Source: Candidatus Aminicenantales bacterium (GTDB taxonomy: Bacteria > Acidobacteriota > Aminicenantia > Aminicenantales > UBA4085). From it: a DNA stretch of 64,000 nucleotides. How positions within the stretch are numbered: the first letter of the stretch is position 1; each line of letters starts with the position of its first letter. The translations under genes and the position numbers were made by a program. The notes beneath the pieces were generated by a model that was not told the origin of the DNA, searched no databases, and saw only the letters and a list, made by a program, of their open reading frames with translations. Shown in pieces: positions 11,315 through 59,054 of this stretch. The stretch is from NCBI GenBank assembly GCA_049515535.1, contig JBEKTZ010000003.1, positions 124,001 through 188,000 of the forward strand, written 5' to 3'.

Positions 11315-11419
11315 GACGGCGGCCGGGGCCCCGGGCTTTACCCGGGGGTCCACTTCCGCCGTACTCGCCCGTGGATATAAGCCACGGGCGAGTGGCGAGC
11401 CGAAGACTCGTCCCTTGAT
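11315..11419 (-). repeat. Family A palindromic element, long form (105 nt), intergenic
   Basis: Near-identical to 18994-19098 and 27503-27607. Lies between convergent genes. Confidence 0.95.
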
Positions 11420-11446
11420 GATATTTTTTCGCTTAAGCGGATTCGA

Positions 11447-12643
11447 TCAAATCAGCCCGAATTCCTTCCCGACTTTCCTGAAGGCCTCCAGAATCTTGTC
11501 CATGTGCTCCTGCTTGTAGGTCCCGATGAGACTGAGCCTGATCAGCTGCATGCCCTGAGGGACACCCGGCGAGATGACGGCGTTGGCGAATACGCCCTCG
11601 TCCATGAGCCTCCTCCAGAAACGGAAGGTCCCCATGTCGTCTCCGATGATGACGGGCAGGATGGGCGTGATGCTCTCGATGAGCTTGAATCCCTGGCTCT
11701 TCAGGCCGTCGCGCATCTCCATGGAGATCTTGCGCAGCCGTTCAACCCTTTCCGGCTCCCGCCGGATGATCCGCAGGGAGGCGCGCACGGCGCCCACGCT
11801 GCCGGGAGCCATGCTGGCGCTGAAACGGAAGGCCTGGGAATTGTATTTGATGTAATCGACGACTTGTCTTTCTCCGGCGACGAAACCGCCCAGGGAGGCG
11901 AAGGACTTGCTGAACGTCCCCATCGTCAGATCGATGTCTTTGTTGTTTTTCAGACCGAAGTGGCTGCACGTCCCGCGGCCGCCTTCTCCGAGCACGCCCG
12001 CGGAGTGCGCTTCGTCGAGCATCACCCGGGCTCCATAGGCCTTGGCCAGACGCGTGAGCTCGGGAAGGTTGACGATCCGGCCGGACATGCTGAAGACGCC
12101 GTCGCTGACGATGAACTTCGGCGCGCCCTCGGGCGCTTTTTTCAGCATCGCCTCCAGGGCGGACATGTCATTCGTCGTATACCTGAGAACGTGGCCGCCC
12201 CGGGCTCTGACGATCCAAGCCCCGGCCACGATGCTGGCGTGATTATCGTCGTCGGAAAGCAGGTATTCGCCGCGCTCGACGAGCGTGGCGATGACGCCCT
12301 GGTTCGTCAGAAAACCAGTTGTGAAGGCGAGGCAGGCCTCGACGCCGAGGAAATCCGCCAACTCTTCTTCCAGTTTCGTGTGGAGGATCGACGTGCCGTT
12401 CAGGAACCTCGAGCCGGAACAGCTCGACCCGAACGCTTTGGTAGCGGCGACGGCGGCTTCGATCACTTCGGGGTGCTGGGACAGCCCCAGGTAATCGTTG
12501 CTGCCGGCCATGATGATGTCCTTCCCCCCCATTTTCACGACCGGTCCGTGATTTTCCTCGATGATCTGAAAATAGGGGAGGAGTCCGGCTTTGATGACTT
12601 CCTGCGGTCTCGAGAACTTATAACATTTGTCGAATAGATCCAT
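11447..12643 (-). CDS. PLP-dependent alpha-oxoamine synthase (serine palmitoyltransferase / AONS family)
   Basis: SNDYLGL, GSRFLNGT, DGVFSMSG, DEAH and GTFSKSFASLGG motifs. Confidence 0.85.
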   Translation of the reverse strand: MDLFDKCYKFSRPQEVIKAGLLPYFQIIEENHGPVVKMGGKDIIMAGSNDYLGLSQHPEVIEAAVAATKAFGSSCSGSRFLNGTSILHTKLEEELADFLGVEACLAFTTGFLTNQGVIATLVERGEYLLSDDDNHASIVAGAWIVRARGGHVLRYTTNDMSALEAMLKKAPEGAPKFIVSDGVFSMSGRIVNLPELTRLAKAYGARVMLDEAHSAGVLGEGGRGTCSHFGLKNNKDIDLTMGTFSKSFASLGGFVAGERQVVDYIKYNSQAFRFSASMAPGSVGAVRASLRIIRREPERVERLRKISMEMRDGLKSQGFKLIESITPILPVIIGDDMGTFRFWRRLMDEGVFANAVISPGVPQGMQLIRLSLIGTYKQEHMDKILEAFRKVGKEFGLI

Positions 12644-12663
12644 GGTTTTTTCCTCCTATAGAA

Positions 12664-13296: not shown

Positions 13297-13299
13297 AAG

Positions 13300-13330
13300 T
13301 GACTCCTGGTAAGTAAATGACTATCAGTCA
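13300..13330. promoter_or_regulatory. Candidate TetR operator(s)
   Basis: Palindrome TGACT-ATC-AGTCA at 13318-13330 and an imperfect copy TGACTCCTGGTAA at 13300-13312, between the promoter and the start codon. Confidence 0.6.
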
Positions 13331-13337
13331 AAAATAA

Positions 13338-13366
13338 ATTATAAGTCAATAATAGGCTTGTGTCAA
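13338..13366 (-). promoter_or_regulatory. Consensus sigma70 promoter for the tetR and SPT-like genes
   Basis: Minus strand TTGACA-17 nt-TATAAT. Confidence 0.8.
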
Positions 13367-13535
13367 GGCGCCGCCTTGCCCTGTCGCATGTTCATCGAGC
13401 AGAAAGACCCCCATTCCTCCGAGGAAGAACACAAGGCGGGAATCGTCAAGCGCGTGGCCGTTCTCAAGAAAAGATGAAAAGCCGGCCGGTTTTCCGGCGG
13501 ATCTCGAACAGAGGCGCGGCGCTTGCGGGCCGCAA

Positions 13536-18199: not shown

Positions 18200-18328
18200 G
18201 TCAATTTGGAGGGGGAACCCGCTTCGCGTTTCCCCCTTCCAACGGGCACACCGTTTTGTACTCTAGGGTACAAAACGGCGTCGCCCTGCCTCCCTTTCTC
18301 GGGCGGGGCATGAAACCCCGCCCTGCGA
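18200..18328 (-). repeat. Family B modular structured repeat, copy 1
   Basis: About 100 nt near-identical to the reverse complement of 48693-48794. First hairpin resembles the one in the 44827-45010 copy. Confidence 0.9.
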
Positions 18329-18964: not shown

Positions 18965-18993
18965 CCGTCCCTCCTTATGGAAAATTCATGGTC

Positions 18994-19098
18994 CACGGCG
19001 GACGGGGCCCCGGGCTTTGCCCGGGGGTCCACTTCCGCCGTACTCGCCCGTGGATATAAGCCACGGGCGAGTGGCGAGCCGAAGGCTCGTCCCTTGAT
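18994..19098 (-). repeat. Family A palindromic element, long form (105 nt), intergenic
   Basis: Near-identical to the other long copies. Lies between divergent genes. Confidence 0.95.
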
Positions 19099-19226: not shown

Positions 19227-21653
19227 ATGAACCATCGACACATGCGGATCTGTCCTGTCGTTCTGGCATTCGTTCTGGCCGCCGTTCCGGCCTGCTCGCA
19301 AAAGCCGAAATCGGATTATGCCGTCAAAGCCGTGCCGCTCGCCGCGGTCAAATTCGCCGGCGGTTTTTGGGCCCGGCGGCAGGCGACCGACATCGCTGTG
19401 ACCATCCGCCACGAAATGAAGGAAGCCGAAGAGACCAACCGCATCAAAAACTTCGAGACGGCGGCCGCCGCTCTGCGGGGCGAGAAGGGCGGCAAATTCG
19501 CCACGGTCTATCCCTTCGACGACTCCGATGTCTATAAGATCATCGAAGCCGCAGCCTACACGCTGCTGCTGCATCCCGATGCCGAGCTCGAAAAGGCGCT
19601 GGATGCGTGGATCGCCAAGATCGGCGCGGCCATGGAGCCCGACGGCTATATTTACACGGCGCGGACGATCGATCCCAAGAAGCCGCCCCGGATGTCCGGC
19701 CCGGAGCGCTGGACAAACGAAAGGAACAGCCATGAGCTCTACAACGCCGGGCATATGTACGAGGCGGCCGCAGCCCACTTCCAGGCGACGGGGAAGAGGA
19801 TTTTCCTCGACCTCGCCCTGAAGAACGCGGACTTCGTCGCCAAGACGTTCGGGCCGGGCAAAGGTCAGCTCAAGTTCGTGCCCGGGCACGAGGTGATCGA
19901 AATGGGCCTGGTCAAGCTTTTCCGCGTCACGGGCAAAATGAAATACCTCGACCTGGCCAAGTTTTTCATCGACGAGCGCGGCAACGCCGCCGGGCACAAG
20001 CTCTACGGCGAATACAACCAGGATCATAAGCCGGTCATCGAGCAAACCGAGGCCGTGGGACACGCCGTCCGGGCGGCTTACCTGTATGCCGGCGTCACGG
20101 ACGTCGCGGCGCTCACCGGCGACCGCCGCTACATGGACGCCATGGACAAGATCTGGGACGACATCGTCTCGAAAAAACTCTATCTCACCGGCGGCATCGG
20201 CGCCGCGGGCGGCATCGAAGGCTTCGGCCCGGCCTATGACCTTCCGAACCCGAGCGGCTACGCCGAGACCTGCGCCACGATCGCCTACGCCCTCTGGAAC
20301 TACCGGATGTTCCTGTATTACGCCGACGCGAAATACATGGACCTCTTCGAGCGCGCCGCCTACAACGCATTTCTCTCGGGATACGGCTTCAGCGGCGATC
20401 GTTTCTTTTATCCCAACCCTCTGGCCTCTTACGGCCAGCATGAGCGGACCGCCTGGTTCACTTGCGCCTGCTGCCCGCCCAATGTGGCCCGCTTCATCGC
20501 CGAGCTCGGCGGGTTCGCTTACGGGGTCGAGGCCGATAAGGTCTTCGTGAACCTCTATACCCAGGGGACGGCCGAGATCGAAACGAAGGCCGGTAAAGTC
20601 GTCCTCGAACAGACGACGGAATATCCATGGAAGGGAGAAATCAAGCTCCGCGTCACGCCAGAGAAAGCCGCGGCCCTCGCCCTGATGGTCCGCATTCCCG
20701 GCTGGGCGCAGGGCCGGCCGCTGCCGAGCGATCTCTACCGGGACGCCGAAGACATCAAAGATCAGCCCGTCGTCAAAGTGAACGGAGAGGCGGTGCCCCT
20801 GAAGATCGAGAAGGGATATGCCCCTCTCGTCCGCACCTGGCAGAAGGACGATCTGGTCGAGATCCATTTGCCGATGCCCGTACGGCGCGTTCTGGCGAAC
20901 GAGAACGTCAAAGACGACATCGGACGGGTCGCGGTCGAGCGCGGACCGCTCGTCTATTGCGCCGAATGGCCGGACAACAACGGCGCCGTGAGCAACCTCG
21001 TCCTCGACGATAAAGCGGTTCTGACGGCCGAGCCGCAGCCGAATCTCCTGAACGGCGTCACGGTGATCTCGGGCGACGCGACGGCTTATCGCTACAAACA
21101 GGGCAAGCTCGTCCGCGAAAACAGGAAGTTGACGCTGATCCCGTATTACGCCTGGGCGCACCGCGGCCGAGGCGAGATGGAAGTCTGGCTCGCCCGCGAA
21201 CCGCAAAAAGCCCGGGCCATTCCCGAACCGACGCCGGCCTCGACGGCGAAGGCCAGCTCATCGGAAGGGGGGAAGGGCGTCAACGCCATCCACGATCTTT
21301 TCGAGCCGGAAAACTCCGGCGATCACGGCCACGGCTATCTCCACTGGTGGCCGAAGAAAGGCACCGTCGAGTGGGTCCAATATGATTTCGCGGCGCCTTT
21401 GACCGTTTCCGAAACGTCCTTGTACTGGTTCGACGACACGGGCGGCGGAGAATGCCGCGTGCCCGCTTCCTGGAAAGCGCTTTATAAGGCGGGCGATAAA
21501 TGGATCCCGGTGAAAAACGCCGGGCCGTTCGGCGTGGACAAGGACAAATACAACACCGTCAAATTCGCGCCCGTCCGGACCTCGGCCCTGCGGCTCGAAA
21601 TCCGGCTTCCGGAAAAGTTCTCGGCGGGCATTCAGGAATGGAAGGTGAAATAA
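19227..21653 (+). CDS. GH127 beta-L-arabinofuranosidase-like lipoprotein with a C-terminal discoidin/CBM-like domain
   Basis: Lipobox-like VPAC, DSDVYK, HELYNAGH, GHAVRA, ETCA and CACCPPN motifs. Confidence 0.88.
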   Translation: MNHRHMRICPVVLAFVLAAVPACSQKPKSDYAVKAVPLAAVKFAGGFWARRQATDIAVTIRHEMKEAEETNRIKNFETAAAALRGEKGGKFATVYPFDDSDVYKIIEAAAYTLLLHPDAELEKALDAWIAKIGAAMEPDGYIYTARTIDPKKPPRMSGPERWTNERNSHELYNAGHMYEAAAAHFQATGKRIFLDLALKNADFVAKTFGPGKGQLKFVPGHEVIEMGLVKLFRVTGKMKYLDLAKFFIDERGNAAGHKLYGEYNQDHKPVIEQTEAVGHAVRAAYLYAGVTDVAALTGDRRYMDAMDKIWDDIVSKKLYLTGGIGAAGGIEGFGPAYDLPNPSGYAETCATIAYALWNYRMFLYYADAKYMDLFERAAYNAFLSGYGFSGDRFFYPNPLASYGQHERTAWFTCACCPPNVARFIAELGGFAYGVEADKVFVNLYTQGTAEIETKAGKVVLEQTTEYPWKGEIKLRVTPEKAAALALMVRIPGWAQGRPLPSDLYRDAEDIKDQPVVKVNGEAVPLKIEKGYAPLVRTWQKDDLVEIHLPMPVRRVLANENVKDDIGRVAVERGPLVYCAEWPDNNGAVSNLVLDDKAVLTAEPQPNLLNGVTVISGDATAYRYKQGKLVRENRKLTLIPYYAWAHRGRGEMEVWLAREPQKARAIPEPTPASTAKASSSEGGKGVNAIHDLFEPENSGDHGHGYLHWWPKKGTVEWVQYDFAAPLTVSETSLYWFDDTGGGECRVPASWKALYKAGDKWIPVKNAGPFGVDKDKYNTVKFAPVRTSALRLEIRLPEKFSAGIQEWKVK

Positions 21654-21661: not shown

Positions 21662-21797
21662 GGGGCATGCCGATCAAAACCGCGCGGATTTTCCCCGGCG
21701 AGGAAAGTCCGCTCGACTTCGTTCTCGCACTCTCGGAAATTTTATTTCCGAACCGTGCCCGCTCCGTCCTCAGACGGGTTTTGATGCGGCATGCCCC
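21662..21797. repeat. Family C structured repeat, copy 2
   Basis: Closing stem ggggcatgccg-atcaaaacc / ggttttgat-g-cggcatgcccc. The core is homologous to the reverse complement of 2778-2884. Confidence 0.8.
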
Positions 21798-24232: not shown

Positions 24233-24433
24233 GCCGCCGGGGCCAAACTCATCAAGTGCATCAAGGGCGAGTTGACCGTTCGCTTCGTCGCGCCGGCCAA
24301 GACGGGCGAGCGCTACAAAATCGTCGGCCGCGTGATCGAGGAGAAGGGCAGGATCGTTCTCGCGGAAAGCGAGCTGACCGATGCCGGAGGCCGGCGGATC
24401 GTCCGCGCCCATGGAAAGCTGTTCAAGATTTGA
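24233..24433 (+). pseudogene. 5'-truncated PaaI/hotdog thioesterase remnant
   Basis: Manual translation AAGAKLIKCIKGELTVRFVAPAKTGERYKIVGRVIEEKGRIVLAESELTDAGGRRIVRAHGKLFKI*. No RBS or ATG start. Confidence 0.65.
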
Positions 24434-24441
24434 GGTGGGAC

Positions 24442-26445
24442 ATGAATCCAAGGAATGATCCAAAGAATTTGATCGCCTTTTCCATGCTCGTTCTGATGGC
24501 CCTCGCCGCCGGCTGCGCCGGGCACAAAAAAGATTATCCGGTCACGCCCGTGAGCTTCACCCAGGTCCGGGTCAACGACGCTTTCTGGGCGCCGAAGCTC
24601 GAAACGAATCGAGCCGTGACCGTGCCTTTCGCCCTGCAGAAAAACGAAGAGACCGGCCGCGTGGACAATTTCCGAAAGGCCGCGCGCTTGATGGCCGGCG
24701 CTTATCAGGGCAAGCGCTATAACGATTCGGATGTCTATAAGGTCATGGAGGGCGCGGCGTATACTCTGATGCTCCATCCGGACCCGCAGCTCAAGAAGCG
24801 GCTCGACGACCTGATCGCCGTCATCGGCAAGGCCCAGGAGCCGGACGGCTATCTTTATACGACGCGCACGATCGATCCCGGAAATCCGGCGCCGGGAGCC
24901 GGCAAAGAGCGCTGGTCCAACCTGCGCGTGAGCCACGAGCTCTACAACGTCGGCCACATGTATGAAGCCGCCGTGGCCCATTTCCAGGCGACGGGCGAGC
25001 GGAGTTTCCTGGACGTCGCGATCAAGAACGCCGACCTTCTTGTCCGCACGTTCGGGCCCGGAAAGCGCCGCGGGTTTCCCGGCCACCAGGAGGTCGAGAT
25101 CGGCCTATCCAAGCTCTATCGCCTCACCGGCAATCCGGCCTATCTCGATTTGGCCAAATTCTTTCTCGACGAGCGAGGGCATTATTTCGGCGGCGAGAGG
25201 CACGACCCAAAAGATCCCTTCGCCGTCTACGACTCGGACGAATACCTGCAGAACCACAAGCCCGTCCTCGAGCAGGACGAAGCGGTCGGCCACGCCGTCC
25301 GGGCGATGTACATGTTTGCCGGCATGGCCGACATCGCGGCGCTCGGCGGATTTCCCGAGTACGTCCAAGCCATCGACCGCCTCTGGGAGAACGTCGTCGG
25401 GAAAAAGATGTATTTGACCGGCGGGGTGGGGGCGCGCGACACATCCGAGGCTTTCGGCGACGCTTACGAGCTTCCGAATGCGAGCGCCTACACTGAGACC
25501 TGCGCGGCCATCGGCAACGCCCTCTGGCAGGAGCGGCTGTTTCTGTTGCACGGCGACGCGAAATACGCCGACGCGCTCGAGCGCGTCATGTACAACGGCT
25601 TGATCTCCGGCGTCTCGCTCGACGGCATGTCGTTTTTCTATCAGAACCCGCTCGAATCGGCCGGCGGATACGGCCGCAGCGCGTGGTTCGAAGTCGCCTG
25701 CTGCCCGCCGAACATCACCCGCTTCCTGCCCTCGGTCCCAGGGTACGTTTACGCCGTGAAAGGCGAAGCGCTTTACGTGAATTTATTCATCGGAAACACG
25801 GCCGCGGTCGAGGTCAATGGGCGGACCATCGACCTCAAACAGGAGACGCGCTACCCCTGGGACGGCGCGGTCAAGATCGCGGTCGGACCCGATAAGCCGG
25901 TCGAATTCACGGTCAATGTCCGCATTCCCGGATGGGCTCAACATCGGCCCGTCCCGGGCGATCTTTATGAGTTCGCGGACACGAGCGATGAGCCGATCGC
26001 CCTGAGCATGAACGGCGCCGCCGTCTCGCTCGAGATGGACCGGGGCTACGCGCGGATCAAGCGAACGTGGAAGAAAGGCGACGTCATCGATCTCCTGCTG
26101 CCCATGCCGGTCCGCCGCGTCGTCGCCCATGCCTCCGTGAAAGCCGATGCCGGGAGGATCGCCCTCCAGCGCGGGCCGATCGTGTTTTGCGCCGAGGGGA
26201 TCGATAACGGAGGGAAAGTCCTGAACTTGGCCCTCTCCGATCGCGCCGTTTTCCGGGCCGAATTCCGGCCCGATCTTCTGAACGGCGTCGTCGTCCTCAG
26301 GGGGAAAGCCCGGACCGAGAACCCCTCTGAGGGCGGAAAGATTTCATTACCCAAAGAACGGGATTTCCTCGCGATCCCGTATTACGCCTGGGCCAACCGC
26401 GGCGCCGGCGAAATGGAAGTCTGGTTCCCGCGAATCAAGGATTGA
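24442..26445 (+). CDS. GH127 beta-L-arabinofuranosidase-like lipoprotein (paralog)
   Basis: Lipobox AAGC, DSDVYK, HELYNVGH, ETCA and ACCPPN motifs. Confidence 0.88.
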   Translation: MNPRNDPKNLIAFSMLVLMALAAGCAGHKKDYPVTPVSFTQVRVNDAFWAPKLETNRAVTVPFALQKNEETGRVDNFRKAARLMAGAYQGKRYNDSDVYKVMEGAAYTLMLHPDPQLKKRLDDLIAVIGKAQEPDGYLYTTRTIDPGNPAPGAGKERWSNLRVSHELYNVGHMYEAAVAHFQATGERSFLDVAIKNADLLVRTFGPGKRRGFPGHQEVEIGLSKLYRLTGNPAYLDLAKFFLDERGHYFGGERHDPKDPFAVYDSDEYLQNHKPVLEQDEAVGHAVRAMYMFAGMADIAALGGFPEYVQAIDRLWENVVGKKMYLTGGVGARDTSEAFGDAYELPNASAYTETCAAIGNALWQERLFLLHGDAKYADALERVMYNGLISGVSLDGMSFFYQNPLESAGGYGRSAWFEVACCPPNITRFLPSVPGYVYAVKGEALYVNLFIGNTAAVEVNGRTIDLKQETRYPWDGAVKIAVGPDKPVEFTVNVRIPGWAQHRPVPGDLYEFADTSDEPIALSMNGAAVSLEMDRGYARIKRTWKKGDVIDLLLPMPVRRVVAHASVKADAGRIALQRGPIVFCAEGIDNGGKVLNLALSDRAVFRAEFRPDLLNGVVVLRGKARTENPSEGGKISLPKERDFLAIPYYAWANRGAGEMEVWFPRIKD

Positions 26446-26497: not shown

Positions 26498-27643
26498 TCA
26501 GACGACCGTCTTTTTGCCCTCTTTCCGAAGTCGATATTGTCCTTCGATCCAGGCATAGGTCTTCCGCATGCCGACGCGCAGAGGCGTATCCGGCTCCCAG
26601 CCGAGAACGCGCTTGATCATGGTGTTGTCGCTGTTGCGGCCGGCGACACCTTTGGGCGCGGTCGGGTCGTATTTTCGCTTGAACATCGCTCCGGCGATCC
26701 CTTCGACGAGGCTGACGAGGTCTTTGACCGAAATGAGCTCGCTTGTGCCCAAGTTGATGGGTGTCGCGATCAGGCCGTCGAAATGGGTGATCATATCAAT
26801 GCCCTTGACGCAGTCGTCGATATACATGAAGCTCCGCGTCTGCGTCCCGTCGCCCCATATTTCGAGCTCTTTCTTGCCCTGGTCCTTGGCGGCGATGACC
26901 TTGCGGCAGAGGGCGGCCGGCGCTTTCTCGCGGCCGCCGTCCCAGGTGCCCCAGGGACCGTAGACGTTGTGGAAGCGGGCGATGAACGTCTGCATCCCCC
27001 GCTCGGCCCAATATTCCTGACAGAGCATCTCCGACACCAGTTTTTCCCAGCCGTAGCCCCGCTCGGCCATGGCCGGGTAAGCGTCCGACTCTTTGAGGGC
27101 CCGGACATTCGGGTCTTTCTGGAGATCGGTGTTATAGACGCAGGCCGAGGAGGAATAGAAATAGCGATCCACTCCGGCCCTGTAAGCGGATTCGATCATG
27201 TGCGTGTTGATGAGGACGCTGCGCAGACACTCGATGCGGAACCGCTCGATGAAGCCCATCCCGCCCATGTCGGCCGCGAGCTGATAAACCTCGCTCGCGC
27301 CTTCCACCGCCCGGCGGCAGTTTTTTTCTTGGCTCAGGTCGAGGCAGAGGCACTCGGCGCCCCGCACGCGCTGGTACCATTCGGACAGGGGCTTTTTGTC
27401 GACGGCGCGGATGCGGGTGAAGCCTTTATCATGAAAATAGCGGGCCAGTGACCCGCCGATGAATCCGCCGCCTCCGGCGATGACGATCTGGATGTCCTTG
27501 TCGACGGCGGACGGGGCCCCGGGCTTTGCCCGGGGGTCCACTTCCGCCGTACTCGCCCGTGGATATAAGCCACGGGCGAGTGGTGAGCCGGAGGCTCGTC
27601 CCTTGACCGCTTGTTTTTTCACGGGGGCTTTTTTCTCGGCCAT
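26498..27643 (-). CDS. NAD-dependent epimerase/dehydratase (GDP-mannose 3,5-epimerase-like) carrying an in-frame family A insert
   Basis: RBS ggagg, GGGGFIG, ADMGGMGFI, YGWEK, RFHNVYGP and REKAPAA motifs. Confidence 0.88.
   Translation of the reverse strand: MAEKKAPVKKQAVKGRASGSPLARGLYPRASTAEVDPRAKPGAPSAVDKDIQIVIAGGGGFIGGSLARYFHDKGFTRIRAVDKKPLSEWYQRVRGAECLCLDLSQEKNCRRAVEGASEVYQLAADMGGMGFIERFRIECLRSVLINTHMIESAYRAGVDRYFYSSSACVYNTDLQKDPNVRALKESDAYPAMAERGYGWEKLVSEMLCQEYWAERGMQTFIARFHNVYGPWGTWDGGREKAPAALCRKVIAAKDQGKKELEIWGDGTQTRSFMYIDDCVKGIDMITHFDGLIATPINLGTSELISVKDLVSLVEGIAGAMFKRKYDPTAPKGVAGRNSDNTMIKRVLGWEPDTPLRVGMRKTYAWIEGQYRLRKEGKKTVV
27503..27607 (-). repeat. Family A element, long form, in frame inside the epimerase
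   Basis: Encodes VKGRASGSPLARGLYPRASTAEVDPRAKPGAPSAV just before the Rossmann motif. Confidence 0.95.
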
Positions 27644-44826: not shown

Positions 44827-45010
44827 TTGACGAGCGGCGAATATGCCCCGCGGCTTGCCGCGGGGAGCCGCTCGTGGGGGTTCCAGAGGGGGCATGCCCC
44901 CTTGGTCGCAGGGCGGGGTCCATGCCCCGCCCGAGAAGGGGGGCAGGGCGACCGGGTCTTCCCGGTGCTCGTTGGAGGGGGAACGCGAAGCGGTCCCCCC
45001 CAAAGTTGAC
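44827..45010 (+). repeat. Family B modular structured repeat, copy 2
   Basis: Bounded by TTGAC direct repeats. Same scaffold as 48608-48794 with different hairpin inserts. Confidence 0.85.
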
Positions 45011-47464: not shown

Positions 47465-47480
47465 GGAAACATCCTTTTTC

Positions 47481-47546
47481 CACGGCGGACGGGGCCTCGG
47501 GCTTTGCCCGGGGGTCCACTTCCGCCGTGAAGGCTCGTCCCTTGAC
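47481..47546 (-). repeat. Family A element, short form (66 nt), intergenic
   Basis: Equals the long form minus the 39-nt internal hairpin module. Confidence 0.95.
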
Positions 47547-48611: not shown

Positions 48612-48794
48612 CAAGCGGGGCACCGCTCGTAGAGGGATCCGAGGGGGAGCCGCCCCCTTGGCCTTAGTCGCAGTCCTATGCGGAGCATAGGGCGAGAAAG
48701 GGAGGCAGGGCGACGCCGTTTTGTACCCTAGAGTACAAAACGGCGTGTCCGTTGGAAGGGGGAAACGCGAAGCGGGTTCCCCCTCCAAATGGAC
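48608..48794 (+). repeat. Family B modular structured repeat, copy 3
   Basis: Bounded by TTGAC...TGGAC. Begins at the tsaD stop codon. Confidence 0.9.
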
Positions 48795-48853: not shown

Positions 48854-51340
48854 TCAGCGGAGAGGGACGATCTGCAGGAGATACGGGTCGACTTTCAAGT
48901 TTTCGCCGGATTTTTTCACGAACTCGAAATTGATCTCGTAGACATAGAGATTTCGGAAAAGGACATAGGCTTCCGGCTTCAGGATCAATTCCTTCTTTTC
49001 GCGCGTCGTCCGGCCTTCGAAGACCGGCCGGTCGAAGAGGGCGGCTTTCACGTCGTGCTCACCGGCCTCCGAGCCGAAGACGAGTTTGATTTTTTCGAGC
49101 TTTTCCCTGGAGCCGAAGACGACGTCATAGGCGCGGTCGTCGTGGAGATAGAGTTCGCCTTCATTTTTCGCCACGACGTCTTTTCCCAGCGGGAAAAGAT
49201 AAAGCCCGATCTGCTGCTGCGTGGAATATGTGAAGATCTGAGCGGGGTAGAGAACGGTCCTGGGAAATAAGATCCAGAGCCAAACCGCCGCGCCCAGAAG
49301 GCCGACGGCCGCCCCCAAACGGAGGCCGGCTCTCTCCGCGGCGGACGGGGCCCCGGGCTTTGCCCGGGGGTCTACTTCCGCCGCGAAGGCTCGTCCCTTG
49401 ACCGCCGGCCGCCTGGCTTTGAAGACGACATAGGCGATGACGAACAAGACGATGGCTGCGATCCAGGCATAGTTCGGCCCATAGCCGAGATTATTGATTT
49501 TGATGAAGGACGGCAGGTATTGCGGCAGAAAAATATGCATGTTGCTCAGGAAGATAAAGAACTCGCCGGCCCTCTGCGTGACTTCGTGGGTCGTGGGCTG
49601 GTAAAGAAACGAGGGATGAAAGAGCAAGAGCGCCGTCATCGCCAACGTCGCCAGCCCGGCCGCCCAGAACAGGGTCGTAAAGATCTTGCGGCGGTTGAAC
49701 GCCAGAAAATAGCCGATCAGCAGCGCGCCGATCCAGGACAGCGGAGCCAGCACGCGCGCCTGGGGACAGGCGCCCTGCCGGTGGGTGAAGAACGCGTAAT
49801 TCAAGAGAAAAGGGAGCGACAAAAAGAGGAGAATAAAGAGATCGCGCTTCGATTTCCGAAAAACCTCGACGAGGCCGAGAAACATGAAAAAATACAGGGG
49901 CGAATAGAGGAGCAGGCCGTCGCGCTGGTCCAGAAAATAATCGAAGAACGTGTCCGACCGCGCCCAGAGAGGGTAGCTGAGCCAGGCTTCCTTGAGGGCC
50001 TGGGCCTGTTCGGGCGAGATGATGCCCTCATAGACGGCGAACGGCGAGATCGTGCCGTACAGGCTGAATACGAAATAATAGAAAAGGACCGCGCCGAGGA
50101 GGGGGAAGAGGAGAAACAGAAGGATCCTGGCCCTCATTTTGTGCCGGGTCCATAGAAAATACAGGCAGACGAGGAGAAGCGGCCAGAAAATGAGGTTATA
50201 TTTCAGCCCGAACCAGAAAAACGTGCCGAGCAGGAATCCCAGGAAGAGAAGAAGCCCGTTGGAGAGAGGCCTGCCGGAAGAAATTTTCCGGAAAACGTAG
50301 ATCGAAAAGAGGGCGATCGGGATTTCCGGATAAAGATGGACGGCGTAAAAGAGGACGGGCGTGCTGAAGGAATAGAAGAGCCAGATCGTCAAGGCCAGGT
50401 TTTCCTTGCGCCAAAGCTCTCGGGCAAGGAGAAAGATCTGCAGCCCGAGGAGAACCGCCCAGATGGAAAGACTGCTTTTTAGGACGAACGTCAGCCACTT
50501 GCCCTTGAGGAGCTGGCCGACTCCGTACCAGGGCAGCATGAGCACCGAGATCCCCGGCAGGTTGATCGGATAGATGTAGTCTTTTCCTTTTTTTCCGTAC
50601 CGGCCGTAGATGCCCAGTCTCAGGCGGGGGTTGTTTTCCCGGGAATAAAAATGAAAATAATCCTCGTTGGCGTAATTGTTGGCCAGGTTGATGTCCTTGT
50701 CGTAGAGGAGGCTGTGGGTCGTGAGGAGGTAATAAGGCTCATCGCCGGTGAAGGTGACGTCCTGCGACACGAGCGCGAACGCGCAGAGGTTGTAAATGAT
50801 GAATGCCGCGAAGAAGAGAACGACGAGTTTTTTCCGGAGGGAGAGGGCGTGGAATCGGGCCGTCCATTTTTTGAGAGCGTTGGGCCGGTCCTTGAGCAGC
50901 GGCGAAAGCCCGGCGATCTTGAGATAGAAAACGGCGAGGGCGACGAAAACGCCGAGCAGGCCGAGGCGGACCTGGAAATCCGATCGCGTCATGTAGTGCG
51001 CGTGAAGGAGCGGGGACAGCAGGAAGAAAAGGAACGGCGCGGCGGCGTGCGCGTTGAGTCTGAGCCGCTCTTCGAGTTCGGCGCCGAGCTTTTTCGTCTC
51101 GATCCTTGCGGAAATCCTTATCCCCGCCGTGAGCAGGATGAAGAAAAAAGCCCAAAAAAAGAAAAACAGGATCAGGGGCGGACCAACCATCCGAAATCCG
51201 TGGCTGAGGATCGTATAGGACCCCGATTGAAGAATGCTGTTGAGATAAGTCGAGAGGCCGGCCGATCCGAATAAGGCACGGATCGTCGCCGGCAGACCGC
51301 GCCTGCCTTTCATGGCTTGAGGTATATTCGACTTGCCCAT
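48854..51340 (-). CDS. Polytopic membrane protein, putative GT-C glycosyltransferase, carrying an in-frame family A insert
   Basis: GDEPYYLL acidic loop motif, DQRDGLL and many transmembrane segments. Paralog of 52148-54523. Start uncertain. Confidence 0.7.
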   Translation of the reverse strand: MGKSNIPQAMKGRRGLPATIRALFGSAGLSTYLNSILQSGSYTILSHGFRMVGPPLILFFFFWAFFFILLTAGIRISARIETKKLGAELEERLRLNAHAAAPFLFFLLSPLLHAHYMTRSDFQVRLGLLGVFVALAVFYLKIAGLSPLLKDRPNALKKWTARFHALSLRKKLVVLFFAAFIIYNLCAFALVSQDVTFTGDEPYYLLTTHSLLYDKDINLANNYANEDYFHFYSRENNPRLRLGIYGRYGKKGKDYIYPINLPGISVLMLPWYGVGQLLKGKWLTFVLKSSLSIWAVLLGLQIFLLARELWRKENLALTIWLFYSFSTPVLFYAVHLYPEIPIALFSIYVFRKISSGRPLSNGLLLFLGFLLGTFFWFGLKYNLIFWPLLLVCLYFLWTRHKMRARILLFLLFPLLGAVLFYYFVFSLYGTISPFAVYEGIISPEQAQALKEAWLSYPLWARSDTFFDYFLDQRDGLLLYSPLYFFMFLGLVEVFRKSKRDLFILLFLSLPFLLNYAFFTHRQGACPQARVLAPLSWIGALLIGYFLAFNRRKIFTTLFWAAGLATLAMTALLLFHPSFLYQPTTHEVTQRAGEFFIFLSNMHIFLPQYLPSFIKINNLGYGPNYAWIAAIVLFVIAYVVFKARRPAVKGRAFAAEVDPRAKPGAPSAAERAGLRLGAAVGLLGAAVWLWILFPRTVLYPAQIFTYSTQQQIGLYLFPLGKDVVAKNEGELYLHDDRAYDVVFGSREKLEKIKLVFGSEAGEHDVKAALFDRPVFEGRTTREKKELILKPEAYVLFRNLYVYEINFEFVKKSGENLKVDPYLLQIVPLR
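49337..49402 (-). repeat. Family A element, short form, in frame inside the membrane protein
   Basis: Encodes VKGRAFAAEVDPRAKPGAPSAA between two hydrophobic segments. Confidence 0.95.
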
Positions 51341-51405
51341 TTCTGTCAAGAGGCCTCGAATTTCAAAACTCGCCCGAAGAAATGAATTTATGGTATAAGG
51401 TACCC

Positions 51406-52185
51406 ATGGACCCGACGCCGAAGCGGACACAGAAGGTGATCGTCGTCATGCCCGCGTTCAACGCCGAGAAGACGCTCGAACGGACGCTCAACGACATTCC
51501 CCGCGAATGGGTGGACGAGATCATCCTCGTCGACGATCGAAGCCGGGACGGAACGGTGGCGCTGGCCCGCCGGCTGGGCTTGCGCGTGTTCGTCCATGAG
51601 CGGAACAGGGGGTACGGACGAAACCAGAAGACCTGCTACACCGAAGCGCTGAATCTGGGCGGCGACATCATGATCATGGTCCATCCGGACCACCAATACG
51701 ATCCCATGGTCATTCCCCAACTCGTCCGGCCTTTGCTCGACGGGGAATGCGACGCGGTGTTCGGGTCAAGGATGCTGGGCGGCCGTCCGCTCGAGGGCGG
51801 CATGCCCAAGTGGAAGTACCTGGCCAACATTTTTCTGACGGCGATCGAGAACGCGACGTTCTATATGTATTTAACGGAATACCATTCCGGGCTCCGCGCC
51901 TATTCGCGCCGCTATCTCGAGACCGTGAATTTCATGGCGAATTCCGACGATTTTGTCTTCGATTCCGAGGTCATCGCCCAGGGCGTGCTCCATAAGATGC
52001 GGATTCGCGAGATCCCGATCGCGACCCGCTACTTCCCCGAGGCCTCGCAAATCGGACTCGGCCGGAGCCTCGTCTATGGTTTTTCGATCCTCGTGACCCT
52101 CGTCAAATTCAAGCTCCATAAAAAAGGGTGGGCGAGGTTCGTGATGTTCAACGGACGGGCTGGATCGATAGAGTGTAAGGGTTGA
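51406..52185 (+). CDS. GT2 glycosyltransferase (polyprenol-phosphate sugar synthase-like)
   Basis: VMPAFNAE, VDDRSRDGT, NRGYG, HPDHQY and GSR motifs. Confidence 0.88.
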   Translation: MDPTPKRTQKVIVVMPAFNAEKTLERTLNDIPREWVDEIILVDDRSRDGTVALARRLGLRVFVHERNRGYGRNQKTCYTEALNLGGDIMIMVHPDHQYDPMVIPQLVRPLLDGECDAVFGSRMLGGRPLEGGMPKWKYLANIFLTAIENATFYMYLTEYHSGLRAYSRRYLETVNFMANSDDFVFDSEVIAQGVLHKMRIREIPIATRYFPEASQIGLGRSLVYGFSILVTLVKFKLHKKGWARFVMFNGRAGSIECKG

Positions 52186-54523
52186 CGCCGGTCCGGACGT
52201 CCGATGTTTTTTCCAAATGGACCGTGAGATCGTAGAGGTATGACGTTTTCCAGCGGTAGGCTGGCGGATTATCCAGAATTCTGTCCTTCATCTCCCGCCG
52301 CGTGACGTCGGCGAAGAGGGGGGCGTCGAACATCTTCAGCTCCAGATGATAATCGCCTTGCAGGGAGCCGAACTCGATTTTGAGCTTGTCGAAGGGCTTG
52401 CCCGAGGCATAATAAAAATGATAATCCCGATTGTCTTCAACCAGTGAAAATCCGCCGCCTTCCCTCAAAAGGGCCGCGCGGGAAAGGGAATAAAAAGTCA
52501 TCTTTTCGCCGGAGGGGAGGGCGACTTTGCGGGGCGGGCCGAGCGTGAGCCGCGGATAAAAAGCGAACCAGATGAAAAACAGAATCAACCCCGCGGCCGT
52601 CAGCGCTCGATGCTGAGCGAATCTCAAGGAAAACGCATGGTTCCGGACGAGAAGATCGGTCGCTACGAACGCCAGAATCAGTGCGGGCCAGACGAAATTC
52701 GGCAACCAGCGCCATTCCGCGATTTTGATGAAGGAGGGGAGGATGTTCGGAATATAGAAATGAAGATGGCTGAGAATGTAGAAGAGATCCCCCCCGCGTT
52801 CCGTGGTTCCGGATGTTGTCTCTTGATAAAGGGCGAGGGGATTCCAACAAAGGAGCCAGACATTGATGAAGCTGAGGCCGATCGCGAAATTCATCAAATA
52901 AGCGAAAATCTTTTTCCCGTTATAAGCCAGGAAATAGCCGAGGAGGATCGCCGGTCCCCAGGCGACGGCGACGAGAGGTCGGGCCTGGGGAGCATAGCTT
53001 CCCCTCTGGGTGAGGAATGCCCAAATGAGGACATAGGGTCCGGTGATGAACATCAGAAGCCAAAAATCCGCGCTTTTCTTCCGAATCATTTCGACGAGTC
53101 CGAGAAAGGCGAAAAAATAGATCGGGGCGTAAAACAGGAGGCCGTCCCGCTGGTCCAGGAAATAGTTGAGGAGCGTGTCCAACCGGAACCGGAAAGGGAT
53201 TCCCGTGAAAAGGGACTTGAGATATCCAATGGTTTGTTTCTCATCCATGGCCACTTGGATGGGGAGGGCCGTCGGGTTGAGCGAGCCGTAGAGCGAGTAC
53301 TGGAAATAGAAATACGGGATAAAAACGACCGCCGCCGGCCCCAGGAAATAAAGAAGATCCCAACGGAGACGATGCTTTTTGATGAGGACCCACAGGGCAT
53401 AGAGACAAAGAGGCCCCAGGATGAAGAAATATTTCAGGGCATGGAACCAAATGAACGAAAACAGGAGGAATCCGCAGAGGACGAGCCTGGGCCTTGACAG
53501 CCGGGGGGAAAACCGGAGCAGCCGGAACACCGTGAGCGAGAAAAGGGCGATGACGATTTCGGAATAGACGTGGATCGAATAGAAAAAGATGGGCGACGTG
53601 AAACTGAAAAGAAGCCAGATTCCCAGGGCGAGACGTTCCTTCCCCCATTCCTGCCGGGCGAAGAGATACATCTGGACGCCGAGCAGGGCTCCGAAAAGAC
53701 TCATCCCGAAGCGGACGAGGAAAAGCAGGGCGCTCTTTCCAAGCCACGTTCCCAGCGCGTAGAAGGGAAGCATCAAAAAGGAGATCCCCGGGGAATGGAA
53801 CGAATACTGGCTTCCAGGGGTCCGGCCGGGCATGGCATGGGCGCGGACGGTCGCCCCGGGAGGCAGATAACGCGAATAATCCTGCGCCGCGTAGTTATTG
53901 GCCAGGTCGAAGTCGCCGTCCTCGAGGAGGCTGTGAGTGATCAGAAGATAATGGGGCTCGTCGCCGGAAAAGAAGATCCCTCGCGAGGTCATAATCATGG
54001 ATCCGGCGTTATATATGACAAGGGCGGCGAGAAAGAGAAGGAGCATCCGACGGGGCACGGAAAGCGAGAAAAATTTGCGCGTCCACAGAAGCCAAGGCGG
54101 CGCTTGCTCCCGGACTTCGTGAACGGCCTGGACGGCCTTGAGATAGAGAATGGAAAAAATTACGGCCGTCAGGAATAATCCCAGCCTCTGGCGCAGATCA
54201 TCGAACGTCAAGTAGTGGACGAGCGTCAAGGGTGTCAACGCGAAAAAAAGGAGAGGAAAATACGTCGAGAGGTCCGCATCGAGCGCTTTTTCATAGGGGA
54301 TCCGGAAGGCCTTCGCGATCACGGCCGAAAACAGAGCCCAGACTCCGTTGAGAAGGATGAACACGGCCGCCGCGGACAGGATCAACGATCCCGGACCGAT
54401 GCCGTAAACGTGGCGGAGAAAGGTGAACGAAGGGACCTGGCCGCGGCATTGAAGAAAGAGAGCCAGGCCAAGGGCGCATAGAAAGAGAAATATCTGGTGG
54501 CCGATTTTTTGCGCCTTTGACAT
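52148..54523 (-). CDS. Polytopic membrane protein, putative GT-C glycosyltransferase
   Basis: GDEPHYLL, DQRDGLL and LPSFIKI motifs shared with 48854-51340. Confidence 0.7.
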   Translation of the reverse strand: MSKAQKIGHQIFLFLCALGLALFLQCRGQVPSFTFLRHVYGIGPGSLILSAAAVFILLNGVWALFSAVIAKAFRIPYEKALDADLSTYFPLLFFALTPLTLVHYLTFDDLRQRLGLFLTAVIFSILYLKAVQAVHEVREQAPPWLLWTRKFFSLSVPRRMLLLFLAALVIYNAGSMIMTSRGIFFSGDEPHYLLITHSLLEDGDFDLANNYAAQDYSRYLPPGATVRAHAMPGRTPGSQYSFHSPGISFLMLPFYALGTWLGKSALLFLVRFGMSLFGALLGVQMYLFARQEWGKERLALGIWLLFSFTSPIFFYSIHVYSEIVIALFSLTVFRLLRFSPRLSRPRLVLCGFLLFSFIWFHALKYFFILGPLCLYALWVLIKKHRLRWDLLYFLGPAAVVFIPYFYFQYSLYGSLNPTALPIQVAMDEKQTIGYLKSLFTGIPFRFRLDTLLNYFLDQRDGLLFYAPIYFFAFLGLVEMIRKKSADFWLLMFITGPYVLIWAFLTQRGSYAPQARPLVAVAWGPAILLGYFLAYNGKKIFAYLMNFAIGLSFINVWLLCWNPLALYQETTSGTTERGGDLFYILSHLHFYIPNILPSFIKIAEWRWLPNFVWPALILAFVATDLLVRNHAFSLRFAQHRALTAAGLILFFIWFAFYPRLTLGPPRKVALPSGEKMTFYSLSRAALLREGGGFSLVEDNRDYHFYYASGKPFDKLKIEFGSLQGDYHLELKMFDAPLFADVTRREMKDRILDNPPAYRWKTSYLYDLTVHLEKTSDVRTGVNPYTLSIQPVR

Positions 54524-54688
54524 GTTTCAGACTATTAGCCCACTTGCAAGCCAAAGTCAAGAGCGCGAGAACTTTCGTCTTTCCCATCCGTATATTAAGG
54601 ATGAGGGCGCATATTTCGGTATTTTTTAGGAGTGCTTTCTGATACACTTCTTGGTTAACATGAGCGATTTTTCTCCAGGAGGAGAGAC

Positions 54689-56248: not shown

Positions 56249-56313
56249 TCGCCGCGACACGGAAAGGGAACATAGTCTTGTGTCCTCATTTTTTTTTGTG
56301 CTAAGATGGCGGG

Positions 56314-57087
56314 GTGAAGATATCGGCGGTCGTCATCACCTTCAACGAAGAAGACCGGATTGAATCCGCCCTCGAGAGCCTGACCGGCGTCGCCGACGAA
56401 ATCATCGTCGTCGACAGCCACAGCACGGACAGGACCGTCAAGCTGGCCCGCAAGCATACCGACCGCGTCTTCGAACGTCCATGGACGAGCTACGCCGACC
56501 AGAAGAATTTCGCGAATTCCCAGGCGTCGCATCCGTGGATTTTCTCGCTCGACGCGGACGAACGCCTTTCGCCCGAGCTGCGCGAAGAGCTTATCACCCT
56601 GAAAAATGACGAGCCGATTTACTCCGGTTTCACCGTCTCCCGGCGGGTCTTTTATCTCGGCCGCTGGATCAGACATTCCGGCTGGTATCCCGACCGCCGG
56701 GTCAGACTCTTCCGCGGCGACCGCGCCCGTTGGGAAGGCGAGTTCGTCCACGAGAAACTCGTCTTCAGCGGAGAAGCCGGAACGTTGAAGGGCGTCGTCC
56801 AGCATTACACCTATAAAAACATCGGCGAGCACTTGGATAGAATCAACCAATTCTCGAGCCTCGGCGCGCAGAAACTCTACGCGGCGAAAAAGAAATGCCG
56901 CTGGTATCATCTCGCCGTCCTGCCCTGTTCGCGATTTCTGAAATCGTACGTTCTCAAGCTCGGCGTCCTCGACGGGTTCGCCGGGCTCGTCGTTTCTGTC
57001 CTCAACGGTTATGCCATTTTCGTCCGGTACGCGAAGCTCCGGGAGATATGGAAAAAAGGAGAGCGACTTGAGCCTTTTCCAGATTGA
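56314..57087 (+). CDS. GT2 glycosyltransferase (LPS core beta-glucosyltransferase LgtF/KdtX-like)
   Basis: ITFNEE, DSHSTD, LDADE, YPD and VHE motifs. Confidence 0.88.
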   Translation: MKISAVVITFNEEDRIESALESLTGVADEIIVVDSHSTDRTVKLARKHTDRVFERPWTSYADQKNFANSQASHPWIFSLDADERLSPELREELITLKNDEPIYSGFTVSRRVFYLGRWIRHSGWYPDRRVRLFRGDRARWEGEFVHEKLVFSGEAGTLKGVVQHYTYKNIGEHLDRINQFSSLGAQKLYAAKKKCRWYHLAVLPCSRFLKSYVLKLGVLDGFAGLVVSVLNGYAIFVRYAKLREIWKKGERLEPFPD

Positions 57088-58180
57088 CGCGGGCAAGGAG
57101 TGGCGGGGAGGGCAGAGGCAGTCGCTTTTTCTCGCCCGAGAGCTAAGAAAAATGGGCTATCCTTTCAAGTTCGTCGTCCAGCCCGACAGCCCGCTTCATC
57201 AGAAGGCCGCCGAGGAGGGGCTCCCTGTCTTTCCGCTCCGGATCAAGAGCGAGCTGCACCTCGGGGCGTTGTATCGATTGTCCCGGGCCATGAAACGCGC
57301 CGGCTGCACGCTGGCTCATTTTCACGACGCCCACGCGGTCTCGGTCGGCCGGCGCGCCGCGAGCCGGGCCCGCGTTCCCATCCGGGTCATCTCCCGGCGC
57401 GTGGATTTCCCGCTGAAAAAAAACCCGTTTTCCCGTAAAAAATACAAGGACGACGTGGACGTCATCATTGCCATTTCCGAGGGCGTGAAGAGCGTTTTGA
57501 TCAAAGGCGGCATCGACCCGGCGGCGATCGAAGTCGTACCGTCAGGTATCGATTTCTCGCCGTTCGACGAGGTCAAGTCCAGGGACTTCCTCCGCAAGGA
57601 GTTCCGTTTCGCTCCGGACGATTATCTCGTCGGCATCGTCGCGGCGCTCGAGGACCATAAAGGGCACCGGGATCTGATCGAGGCAGCGCGGTGGATCAAG
57701 TTTCACGCGCCGAGGGTCAGGATCATCATCGTCGGTAAGGGCTCGCTCGAAATGGAGCTCGACCAGAAGGCGCGCGCTCTTCAAGTGGACGACGTGGTTT
57801 ATTTTCTGGGATTCCGGGAGGACATCCCGCGCATTCTCGCCTCGCTCGATCTGTTCGTCCTGTCGTCCCACCTGGAAGGCCTGGGGACGTCGATCATGGA
57901 CGCCATGGCCTGCCGGCTGCCGGTCGTGGCGACCGAAGTCGGCGGAATTCCCGAGGTCGTCATCGACAATGAGACCGGCCTCCTCGTTCCTCCGCGCAAC
58001 CCGCAGGCCCTGGCCGAAGCCATCGTCCGCCTCTACTACGAAAGGCTCCTGGCCGCCCGCCTCGGCAACCGCGGCTACGAGGTCGTCCACGAAAAGTTCT
58101 CGGCCGAGGCGATGGCCCGCCGCATCATCGCCGTCTACGAAAGAATAGCCGCCCGAAAAGGAATCCGACTTCGTGGATAA
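57068..58180 (+). CDS. GT4 glycosyltransferase
   Basis: WRGGQRQ, HKGH, EGLGTSIMDAM and GGIPE motifs. TTG start inferred. Confidence 0.88.
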   Translation: MSLFQIDAGKEWRGGQRQSLFLARELRKMGYPFKFVVQPDSPLHQKAAEEGLPVFPLRIKSELHLGALYRLSRAMKRAGCTLAHFHDAHAVSVGRRAASRARVPIRVISRRVDFPLKKNPFSRKKYKDDVDVIIAISEGVKSVLIKGGIDPAAIEVVPSGIDFSPFDEVKSRDFLRKEFRFAPDDYLVGIVAALEDHKGHRDLIEAARWIKFHAPRVRIIIVGKGSLEMELDQKARALQVDDVVYFLGFREDIPRILASLDLFVLSSHLEGLGTSIMDAMACRLPVVATEVGGIPEVVIDNETGLLVPPRNPQALAEAIVRLYYERLLAARLGNRGYEVVHEKFSAEAMARRIIAVYERIAARKGIRLRG

Positions 58181-59054
58181 GGTGAACGTCCGCCCGCTGC
58201 GAAGTTTCGGGGATTACGAAGGCTGCGTCGAAATCCAACGCGAGGTCTGGGGCCATGCCGATCTCGACATCACCCCCGTCCATCAGTTCTGCATTTCCGT
58301 CCAGACGGGCGCCGTTCTCCTGGGGGCGTTCGTCGGAAAAAAGTTGGCCGGCTACGTCTATTCCTTCCCGGCCGCATTCGGCCGGAAACACTGTCAACAT
58401 TCGGACCATCTCGCCGTCCTTCCGGACTATCAGGGCTACGGCATCGGCAAGAAACTGAAACAAGCCCAACGGGAGGAAGCCTTGAGGGCCGGCTACGATC
58501 TCGTGACCTGGACCTATGACCCGATGCAGGCCCGCAACGCCAATCTCAATCTCCACACGCTCGGCGCCGTGGGCAAGACCTACCTCGACGATTTTTACGG
58601 ACGCACTCCGAGCCTGAGCCTCGATACCGGCGTTCCGACCGACCGGCTGCTCGTCGAATGGTGGATCAAATCGGCGCGGGTCCGCCGCAAAATGAACCGC
58701 AAAGACGAGCCGCCGGATACGGGCCGGTTCGCTGCGGCCGTCAAGGGACGAGCCTTCGCGGCAGAAGTGGAACCCCGGGCAAAGCCCGGGGCCCCGGCCG
58801 CCGTCGAGCGGAAGCCGGGCGGAAAATATCCGGACATCGCCCCGGCGCGGCCGATCCTGACTCTCAAAGGGCCGCACATCCTGGTCGAATTGCCGAAGAA
58901 CATTCGCGATCTCAAGCCGTTGCCCGGCGCGATCGGCCGCTGGCAAAAAGCCGTCCGAACGGCCCTCAAGCATTATTTTTCCCATGGCTACCGGCTCGAG
59001 GATTTCATCTTCGGCGAGCGGTGCTATTACGTCCTCAAGAAGTCGGGATCTTAA
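58173..59054 (+). CDS. GNAT family acetyltransferase carrying an in-frame family A insert
   Basis: YQGYGIGKKLK, WTYDP, NANLN and TDRLLVEW motifs. Confidence 0.85.
   Translation: MDKVNVRPLRSFGDYEGCVEIQREVWGHADLDITPVHQFCISVQTGAVLLGAFVGKKLAGYVYSFPAAFGRKHCQHSDHLAVLPDYQGYGIGKKLKQAQREEALRAGYDLVTWTYDPMQARNANLNLHTLGAVGKTYLDDFYGRTPSLSLDTGVPTDRLLVEWWIKSARVRRKMNRKDEPPDTGRFAAAVKGRAFAAEVEPRAKPGAPAAVERKPGGKYPDIAPARPILTLKGPHILVELPKNIRDLKPLPGAIGRWQKAVRTALKHYFSHGYRLEDFIFGERCYYVLKKSGS
58740..58805 (+). repeat. Family A element, short form, in frame inside the GNAT gene
   Basis: Encodes VKGRAFAAEVEPRAKPGAPAAV. Confidence 0.95.

Follow-up and report, generated by a model that had tools for sequence, protein, structure and literature searches.

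Family A, a palindromic DNA element present in six copies in a 64,000-nt stretch of the genome of a Candidatus Aminicenantales bacterium (GenBank assembly GCA_049515535.1, contig JBEKTZ010000003.1, positions 124,001 to 188,000; hereafter the window), is a real repeat whose copies reside both between genes and, in frame, within genes for otherwise conserved proteins. It is probably a non-autonomous miniature of the IS200/IS605 group of insertion sequences that behaves like a Rickettsia palindromic element (RPE). Such miniatures are known as palindrome-associated transposable elements (PATEs), which PMC3119063 and PMC10055086 describe as non-autonomous IS200/IS605 derivatives. An earlier reading of the window from its letters alone (the sequence-only reading) had recognized a peptide-donating repeat, and our data uphold this view: family A is a dispersed, lineage-restricted palindrome that adds peptides to otherwise conserved proteins whose orthologs lack them. 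What had been overlooked is the likely mobilizing enzyme, an IS200/IS605 TnpA transposase, which would make family A a PATE rather than an unexplained repeat. That the host proteins tolerate the in-frame insertions we regard as almost certain, and the inserted peptides are presumably translated.

Coordinates given here are positions within the window, and orientation refers, unless stated otherwise, to the strand from which the sequence-only reading had derived the peptide. A 44-nt core of family A occurs six times in the window and not once in any of 20 shuffled versions of it; all six copies that had been proposed are present, three between genes and three inside open reading frames (ORFs) that are free of stop codons. 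Two intergenic copies, both on the minus strand, represent the 102-nt long form with its three hairpins: one (11318-11419; target GTCGA at 11313-11317) is bordered by convergent genes, the other (18997-19098; target GTGGA at 18992-18996) by divergent genes. The third intergenic copy (47484-47546, minus strand; target GTGGA at 47479-47483) is of the 63-nt short form. Among the genic copies, a long form of 34 codons (27506-27607, minus strand; target GTCGA at 27501-27505) lies in frame 12 codons past the ATG within the N-terminal extension of an NAD-dependent epimerase/dehydratase, whose gene (26498-27643, minus strand) starts with the ATG at 27643 and is preceded by a ribosome-binding site and a promoter-like site (27709-27681). 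A short form of 21 codons (49340-49402, minus strand; target GCGGA at 49335-49339) lies in frame in a loop that varies naturally in a conserved multi-pass membrane protein without a match in Pfam or NCBIfam (48854-51430, minus strand; start at 51313 according to the Markov gene caller). Another short form of 21 codons (58740-58802, plus strand; target GTCGA at 58803-58807) is in frame within a gene for a GNAT-family acetyltransferase (58173-59054, plus strand), where it falls into a modelled low-confidence loop (residues 179-205); a sequence search for a solved structure of this protein returned none. The ortholog sets fetched for these hosts, which comprise best-scoring loci only, uniformly lack the peptide: all 19 GNAT orthologs are shorter by exactly 21 amino acids, all 15 orthologs of the membrane protein are without the peptide, three of them carrying unrelated extensions in the same loop, and the same is true of all 15 epimerase orthologs. 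Furthermore, contigs from runs X2 and X4, which stem from two other studies, lead from the host genes into the element at 58740 and on the 49402 side.

The host genome is a draft assembly of 3.45 Mb that is 94% complete. Searching it with the 18-nt end of the element yielded 127 matches, among them 108 full-length copies without gaps, 59 of the short and 49 of the long form; the other 19, which were nested, composite, truncated or chance matches, were excluded from all counts. Hence, further copies do exist genome-wide as had been anticipated, although at a density of about one per 30 kb rather than the one per 10 kb that the sequence-only reading had derived from the window. Of 40 relatives, 13 possess the long form, one of them with as many as 188 first-look candidates. 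A sample of 300 genomes of the phylum gave one convincing match, from the same order, and five more of 23-38 nt that we took as chance. The exact 34-nt pattern was found at 64 loci in GTDB: 58 in Aminicenantes, two in "Acidobacteria" and four on single contigs of other phyla. Two of these four contigs may be misbinned; their flanks are about 70% like this genome. A contig labelled Elusimicrobia (L158, P0037) encodes a hydrolase that contains, in frame, a family A variant whose 5' module is different; this contig has no flank match to this genome, and a transfer between phyla is possible. On a contig labelled Sedimentisphaerales (L132:1113-1442), a repeat of about 315 nt adjoins a family A copy, and several copies of that repeat with 81-86% identity are present in this genome (C10, C12).

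A search of IMG/VR with the exact pattern and a distant search of PLSDB both gave no match, and in Rfam no family reached its gathering score in the window, where four weak matches fell far below threshold. No account of family A or of in-frame PATEs was found in the open literature, a coverage that leaves out subscription journals, ISfinder and supplementary tables such as the list of intragenic REPs of PMC3733652. Family A thus matched no described family in Rfam or the open literature; the underlying phenomenon, in contrast, is not new, since in-frame palindromes beyond Rickettsia are on record in PMC3733652 and PMC2229807.

In peptide-strand orientation, the 5' flank is random and family A starts with RTCAA in 100 of the 108 copies, while the downstream flank reads GT(C/G/T)GA in 64 of them and near variants thereof in the remainder. 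The same end pattern recurs at the 64 GTDB loci, and 62 of the 63 GTDB copies with both ends measure either 63 or 102 nt. In alleles of an alpha-galactosidase gene, the target is intact when the site is empty and follows the element when it is filled, without any duplication; the GT(C/G/T)GA flank is therefore the host target. Several copies are nested in another copy's own GGAA|GTGGA site. Because the target flank is present in empty sites and nested copies split GGAA|GTGGA, the mobile unit comprises 63 or 102 nt and not the 66 or 105 nt given by the sequence-only reading, whose last 3 nt belong to the target; its statement that both forms are multiples of three applies equally to the corrected lengths. 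Variants of 72, 141 and 165 nt likewise preserve the triplet, and the element appears to be assembled from triplet-length modules (63 nt, +39, +78, -30 and, through nesting, +102 nt). The dinucleotides at the 5' and 3' junctions do not covary, in keeping with the lack of a target duplication. Terminal inverted repeats are lacking and the ends are asymmetric, with palindromes located near the termini. Read on the strand opposite to the peptide strand (the top strand), the target TC(C/G)A(C) borders one end and TTGA(C) the other. Taken together, insertion is precise beside a target of 4-5 nt, without duplication and without terminal inverted repeats.

At the cut site a 1-nt ambiguity persists, and weak evidence from sequence comparison favours a host-derived terminal purine: the copies that end in A share no sub-lineage variants, and one ortholog with about 80% identity has an A in its empty site. 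As the sequence-only reading had proposed, the element folds, and it does so on both strands far better than shuffled sequences (z of -7.3 and -8.0 for the long form with its three hairpins, -3.9 for the short form with its one main hairpin). Its freedom from stop codons is not unusual, given that 43-52% of shuffled sequences are equally open. A classical miniature inverted-repeat transposable element of the DDE type was rejected as well, because family A is devoid of both terminal inverted repeats and target duplications.

Family A is oriented with replication, independent of the direction of genes. In 81 of 108 copies (P = 1.9e-7), and in 82 of 108 when the skew of whole contigs is used, the TTGAC-ending (top) strand coincides with the G-rich one, whereas the target motif itself, our control, lies on the G-rich strand in 47% of its occurrences. 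Of 30 copies whose neighbouring or host genes occupy the opposite strand, 24 keep this orientation; copies in convergent spacers are without bias (7 of 13). The dnaA gene sits where the skew turns positive, which supports the G-rich strand being the leading one, and a ribosomal L3 gene is located on it. An orientation with fork movement has likewise been reported for IS200 (PMC3971601). According to PMC10055086 and PMC3119063, IS200/IS605 elements and PATEs insert precisely by a short target, possess a conserved motif at the other end and subterminal hairpins, and do not duplicate their target; TAM/TEM ends together with missing target duplication are listed as IS200/IS605 traits (PMC10055086). 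PATEs reduced to their termini can be as short as 52 bp, and PATEs nest in one another (PMC3119063, PMC10055086). Family A resembles these elements in its short target motif on one side and conserved terminal oligonucleotide on the other, its subterminal palindromes, its nesting and a size too small for a transposase gene, and we observe in it four traits by which PATEs are recognized: no inverted repeats, no duplication, target plus end motifs and a fork-biased orientation.

Sequence similarities to IS200 are seen in this genome and in the order. Both boundaries of the only IS200 in the genome read TTGAC, an end shared with family A, and the hairpin of this IS200 recurs within two mismatches in eight sibling miniatures. 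Moreover, in three of 30 IS200 loci, which belong to a second clade, the right-end hairpin agrees with that of family A at 19 of 20 nt, the termini being different. The siblings form a modular family of 164-204 nt with TTGAC at both boundaries and about 25-30 matches genome-wide; some copies carry the exact IS200 hairpin, and 22 of 31 ends lie on the leading strand. Unlike family A, whose major length classes of 63, 72, 102, 141 and 165 nt all keep the frame, only eight of the 19 full sibling copies have triplet length, and none of the 19 was called in a gene. The window contains a 179-nt sibling (44832-45010, plus strand) that is preceded by and ends with TTGAC and shares its subterminal hairpin exactly with the resident IS200, a family B/C copy (48613-48794, plus strand) and a partial family B/C copy (18200-18328, minus strand) with its TTGAC end at 18200. 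The site of the 179-nt sibling is empty in an allele seen in runs X2 and X3. Run X4 shows family A ends joined at window positions 45006, next to this sibling, and 54664, each by one junction; both positions are empty in the window and are preceded by TCGAC and TTAAC, respectively. No joints that skip family A were among the 15 listed of 96 joints from runs X2 to X5, in which contigs reveal presence and not absence.

Several observations weigh against an assignment of family A to IS200/IS605. No autonomous element with its termini is present among the 30 IS200 loci of the order; the hairpin match covers just 20 nt (E = 0.02), and IS200 ends often carry hairpins of this kind. The tnpA gene of this genome has an internal TAA, and four of five element-rich relatives (drafts, 86-98% complete) showed only RAYT-like Y1 genes and none of the IS200 type. 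The short form has a single hairpin instead of the usual two ends, and no guide-target pairing was established for family A. With respect to orientation, the strand bias was measured against a weak GC skew (0.01-0.06), and genes were called with a crude model. TnpB (PF07282) was not found in the 94%-complete genome, nor was IscB (PF14239), for which the controls gave no match either, so that this result shows little. An intact IS200, 95% identical to the one of this genome, is present in another genome (G014). The resident IS200 with the internal stop (L001:942-2370; G000 C9, about 107.4-108.9 kb) splits another ORF, which may encode an IS1-family transposase. In the clade to which this IS200 belongs (L074-L101), T follows most of the right ends, which hints at a target preference 3' of the cut.

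The most serious alternative, improbable in our judgement, is that family A represents a repeat of the repetitive extragenic palindrome (REP)/REPIN type spread by a RAYT-like (TnpA-REP/TIRYT) tyrosine transposase, its in-frame copies arising in the manner of intragenic GTAG/CGTC REPs. A single hairpin can suffice for REPs, and an intact RAYT-like Y1 gene exists in this genome (L002) and in all five relatives tested. At the end of many family A copies stands CGTC, which is also the tag that marks CGTC REPs and RPEs (PMC3733652); GC-rich hairpins and the Y1 HUH enzyme class are further points of likeness (PMC3733652, PMC6006769), and in-frame intragenic REP copies of 20-30 amino acids are described, e.g., for Opitutus terrae (PMC3733652). 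However, none of 11 Y1 loci has a family A copy within 1.5 kb, so that the HUH or RAYT transposase flanked by the element, for which the sequence-only reading had suggested looking, was not found among them, and L002 is instead flanked by unrelated inverted repeats. By resemblance and not by a tree, it was assigned to subclass 2.1 (TIRYT), whose members are without REPs in the account of PMC6006769. Family A has no GTAG foot, its GTC belongs to the target and is present in empty sites, its stem and loop are unlike those of the CGTC families described in these sources, and its copies are single and directional rather than inverted doublets. The L002 gene itself (L002:1353-2428) has a C-terminal extension and inverted repeats of about 27 nt on either side, as in TIRYTs.

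Genes were called on the element-free genome with a home-made, crude Markov gene caller (2,674 genes, 85% coding; some genes are missed). By these calls, 77 of the 108 copies (71%) are intergenic and 31 are genic. When related to the available GT(C/G)GA targets, 77 of 1,513 intergenic sites are occupied in comparison with 31 of 17,656 genic ones (odds ratio 30); since occupancy per target is thus about 30-fold lower in genes, most genic insertions must have been lost. This bears on the very unlikely view that family A is a domesticated regulatory element, be it part of a promoter, a terminator or an mRNA-stabilizing RNA, whose spread was favoured by the host and whose genic copies are by-products. 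Its intergenic majority, its strong hairpins, the resemblance of its end to a -35 box and the weak Rfam matches, far below gathering scores as they are, speak for such a function; an intergenic excess is, however, expected if genic insertions are purged. Among the 47 copies with TTGAC directed toward a gene start, none has a -10 box at a distance of 16-18 nt (background 7%), which rules out promoter donation; in addition, orientation tracks replication and not transcription, and presence among genera is patchy.

The genic copies are compatible with the reading frames they occupy. Twenty-seven of the 31 add no stop codon and the other four lie within six codons of a stop, while all 16 copies located at least 30 codons from both gene ends are stop-free and in frame. 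Nine of these 16 are read in the sense frame and five and two in two antisense frames, a usage that departs modestly from target availability (P = 0.02). Hence, the claim that copies lie in sense orientation and in one and the same frame describes the three genes in the window correctly, but genome-wide three frames and both orientations are used, and three unrelated peptides are therefore donated. Frameshifting copies (six of 108, all called intergenic) were left unused as evidence, being few and partly circular with gene calling. Hosts include GltX, BamA, iPGM, RibBA, an LptA-domain protein, HypD, a LeuC/HacA-type subunit and an aldehyde ferredoxin oxidoreductase; for the first six of these, no paralog was found in the 94%-complete assembly. 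The inserted gltX, recorded on 12 contigs, is the only gene for a glutamyl-tRNA synthetase (GluRS) found in the assembly, the other PF00749 gene reading as a probable GlnRS. Of 19 GltX orthologs fetched, 17 are shown to be without exactly the 21 residues, and two were unmatched by the motif. In AlphaFold models (mean pLDDT 83 and 86), the host folds are retained and the inserts lie in segments with pLDDT below 50 (GNAT 179-205, GltX 232-257), although low pLDDT is also expected wherever the alignment has no residues. The two halves of the iPGM gene (G000 C2:209882-211621, L251) are exchanged in position, and the linker between them holds a family A copy of the long form.

Loops that have received family A vary in length among close homologs. 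At the GNAT site of the window, homologs 88-92% identical carry 21, 34 or 65 additional residues; a NagA site holds 21 or about 60 amino acids; and the alpha-galactosidase site, for which 15 of 80 fetched loci were aligned, has inserts of 99, 60, 15 or 0 nt (33, 20, 5 or 0 amino acids), always in frame. Between two filled alpha-galactosidase alleles, dN/dS is 0.23 (23.5 non-synonymous and 33.5 synonymous differences) in comparison with 0.15-0.20 for empty pairs, a value that comes from one filled pair, possibly mosaic. The series and the dN/dS value together indicate that occupied loops are retained while the host stays under purifying selection, and that their length changes in frame, although independent insertions at a hot spot are a possible source of the series.

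Selection of the peptide itself, as an interaction or linker motif common to many proteins, is less likely still than a regulatory function. A search for the long peptide, as the sequence-only reading had suggested, found it outside this genome in 39 of 49 candidate database proteins, 34 times internally, some of these being alleles of one gene, and it is unchanged in seven alpha-galactosidases that are 95-100% identical. In opposition to an adaptive role stand the three unrelated peptides obtained from three frames, insert lengths of 0 to 65 amino acids at one site, stop-freeness at chance level and the functional disparity of the hosts. With the antisense peptide of GltX as query, GltX itself was the sole protein recovered (one of 34 candidates), so that the survey outside this genome covers sense-frame inserts. 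The least credible alternative, that genic copies are assembly artefacts or marks of dead genes in a draft genome whose repeats break short-read contigs, is countered by contigs of runs X2 and X4 that cross gene-element junctions, by the 12 contigs with the inserted GltX as the only GluRS found, by intact ORFs and by purifying selection between filled alleles.

With a PATE as the favoured interpretation of family A, its spread might proceed as follows. A Y1 HUH transposase (TnpA), supplied in trans, would excise the element as single-stranded DNA and paste it into the lagging-strand template, the layout acted upon being, on the top strand, the target TC(C/G)A(C) and the TTGA(C) end with one to three hairpin modules between them. 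As the modules are of triplet length and the GC-rich sequence is mostly stop-free, an insertion into a gene often keeps the frame. Most genic insertions would nevertheless be purged, and survivors would be near-neutral passengers in termini, linkers and surface loops that tolerate 21-34 extra residues; the occupied loops could subsequently lengthen or shrink in frame through nested insertion, module exchange or deletion. A bolder extension, which we consider doubtful, is that selection on family A, as a lineage of elements, has favoured compatibility with proteins and that the element serves as a reversible, modular loop donor with scarless excision by TnpA. If true, loops of 21-65 residues would be added, extended and removed in essential enzymes, family A would for the first time link an RPE-like element to its transposase, and "protein-coding palindromes" in general might be suspected to be IS200/IS605 miniatures.

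In-frame palindromes as such are known from RPEs, Wolbachia repeats and ERIC and Correia fusions (PMC10969869, PMC2229807) and from intragenic REPs (PMC3733652, PMC6006769); new here are the strand bias, the allelic series and the genome census. With RPEs and Wolbachia repeats, family A shares the nature of a dispersed hairpin repeat that is found between genes and in frame in conserved proteins, without a counterpart in orthologs (PMC10969869, PMC2229807), and the guanylate kinase that stays active despite an RPE offers a precedent for a near-neutral effect (PMC10969869, PMC2229807). Family A works like an RPE but is not one, and it differs in its described traits: it measures 63 or 102 nt in comparison with 105-150 nt (PMC2229807), has asymmetric ends in place of terminal inverted repeats (PMC2229807), belongs to an environmental (peat/sediment) lineage of a different phylum and not to Rickettsia, and exhibits a defined target, a replication-strand bias and three frames in use. 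It differs from PATEs in that no parent insertion sequence with the same termini was found, the sequence being unrelated apart from the hairpin, in its construction from triplet-length modules and in having about one quarter of its copies in frame in genes, a feature absent from the descriptions of PATEs given in PMC3119063 and PMC10055086.

The movement of RPE-like, peptide-donating palindromes is treated as unsettled in reviews (PMC2229807, PMC3733652), with target duplication by RPEs marked "?" (PMC2229807) and CGTC repeats described as being without a dedicated transposase (PMC3733652). For family A, the mechanism is testable in vitro because a defined target, the lack of duplication, a replication-strand bias and candidate TnpA enzymes are at hand. 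Its same-site alleles document how protein loops arise, grow and erode in frame, and its inserts map insertion-tolerant sites in GluRS, BamA, iPGM and others. In practical terms, unrelated Aminicenantes proteins look homologous by virtue of the shared peptide, which can mislead annotation.

The window harbours further repeated sequences. Two tandem pairs of paralogs are present (19227-21653 with 24256-26445, and 48854-51430 with 52148-54523); in the latter, the membrane-protein pair, only one member carries the element. An ORF of 993 amino acids (37135-40116, minus strand) contains six repeats of about 198 nt, and another palindromic repeat family is represented at 2790-2900 and 21679-21739, with about seven or eight similar stretches in the genome.

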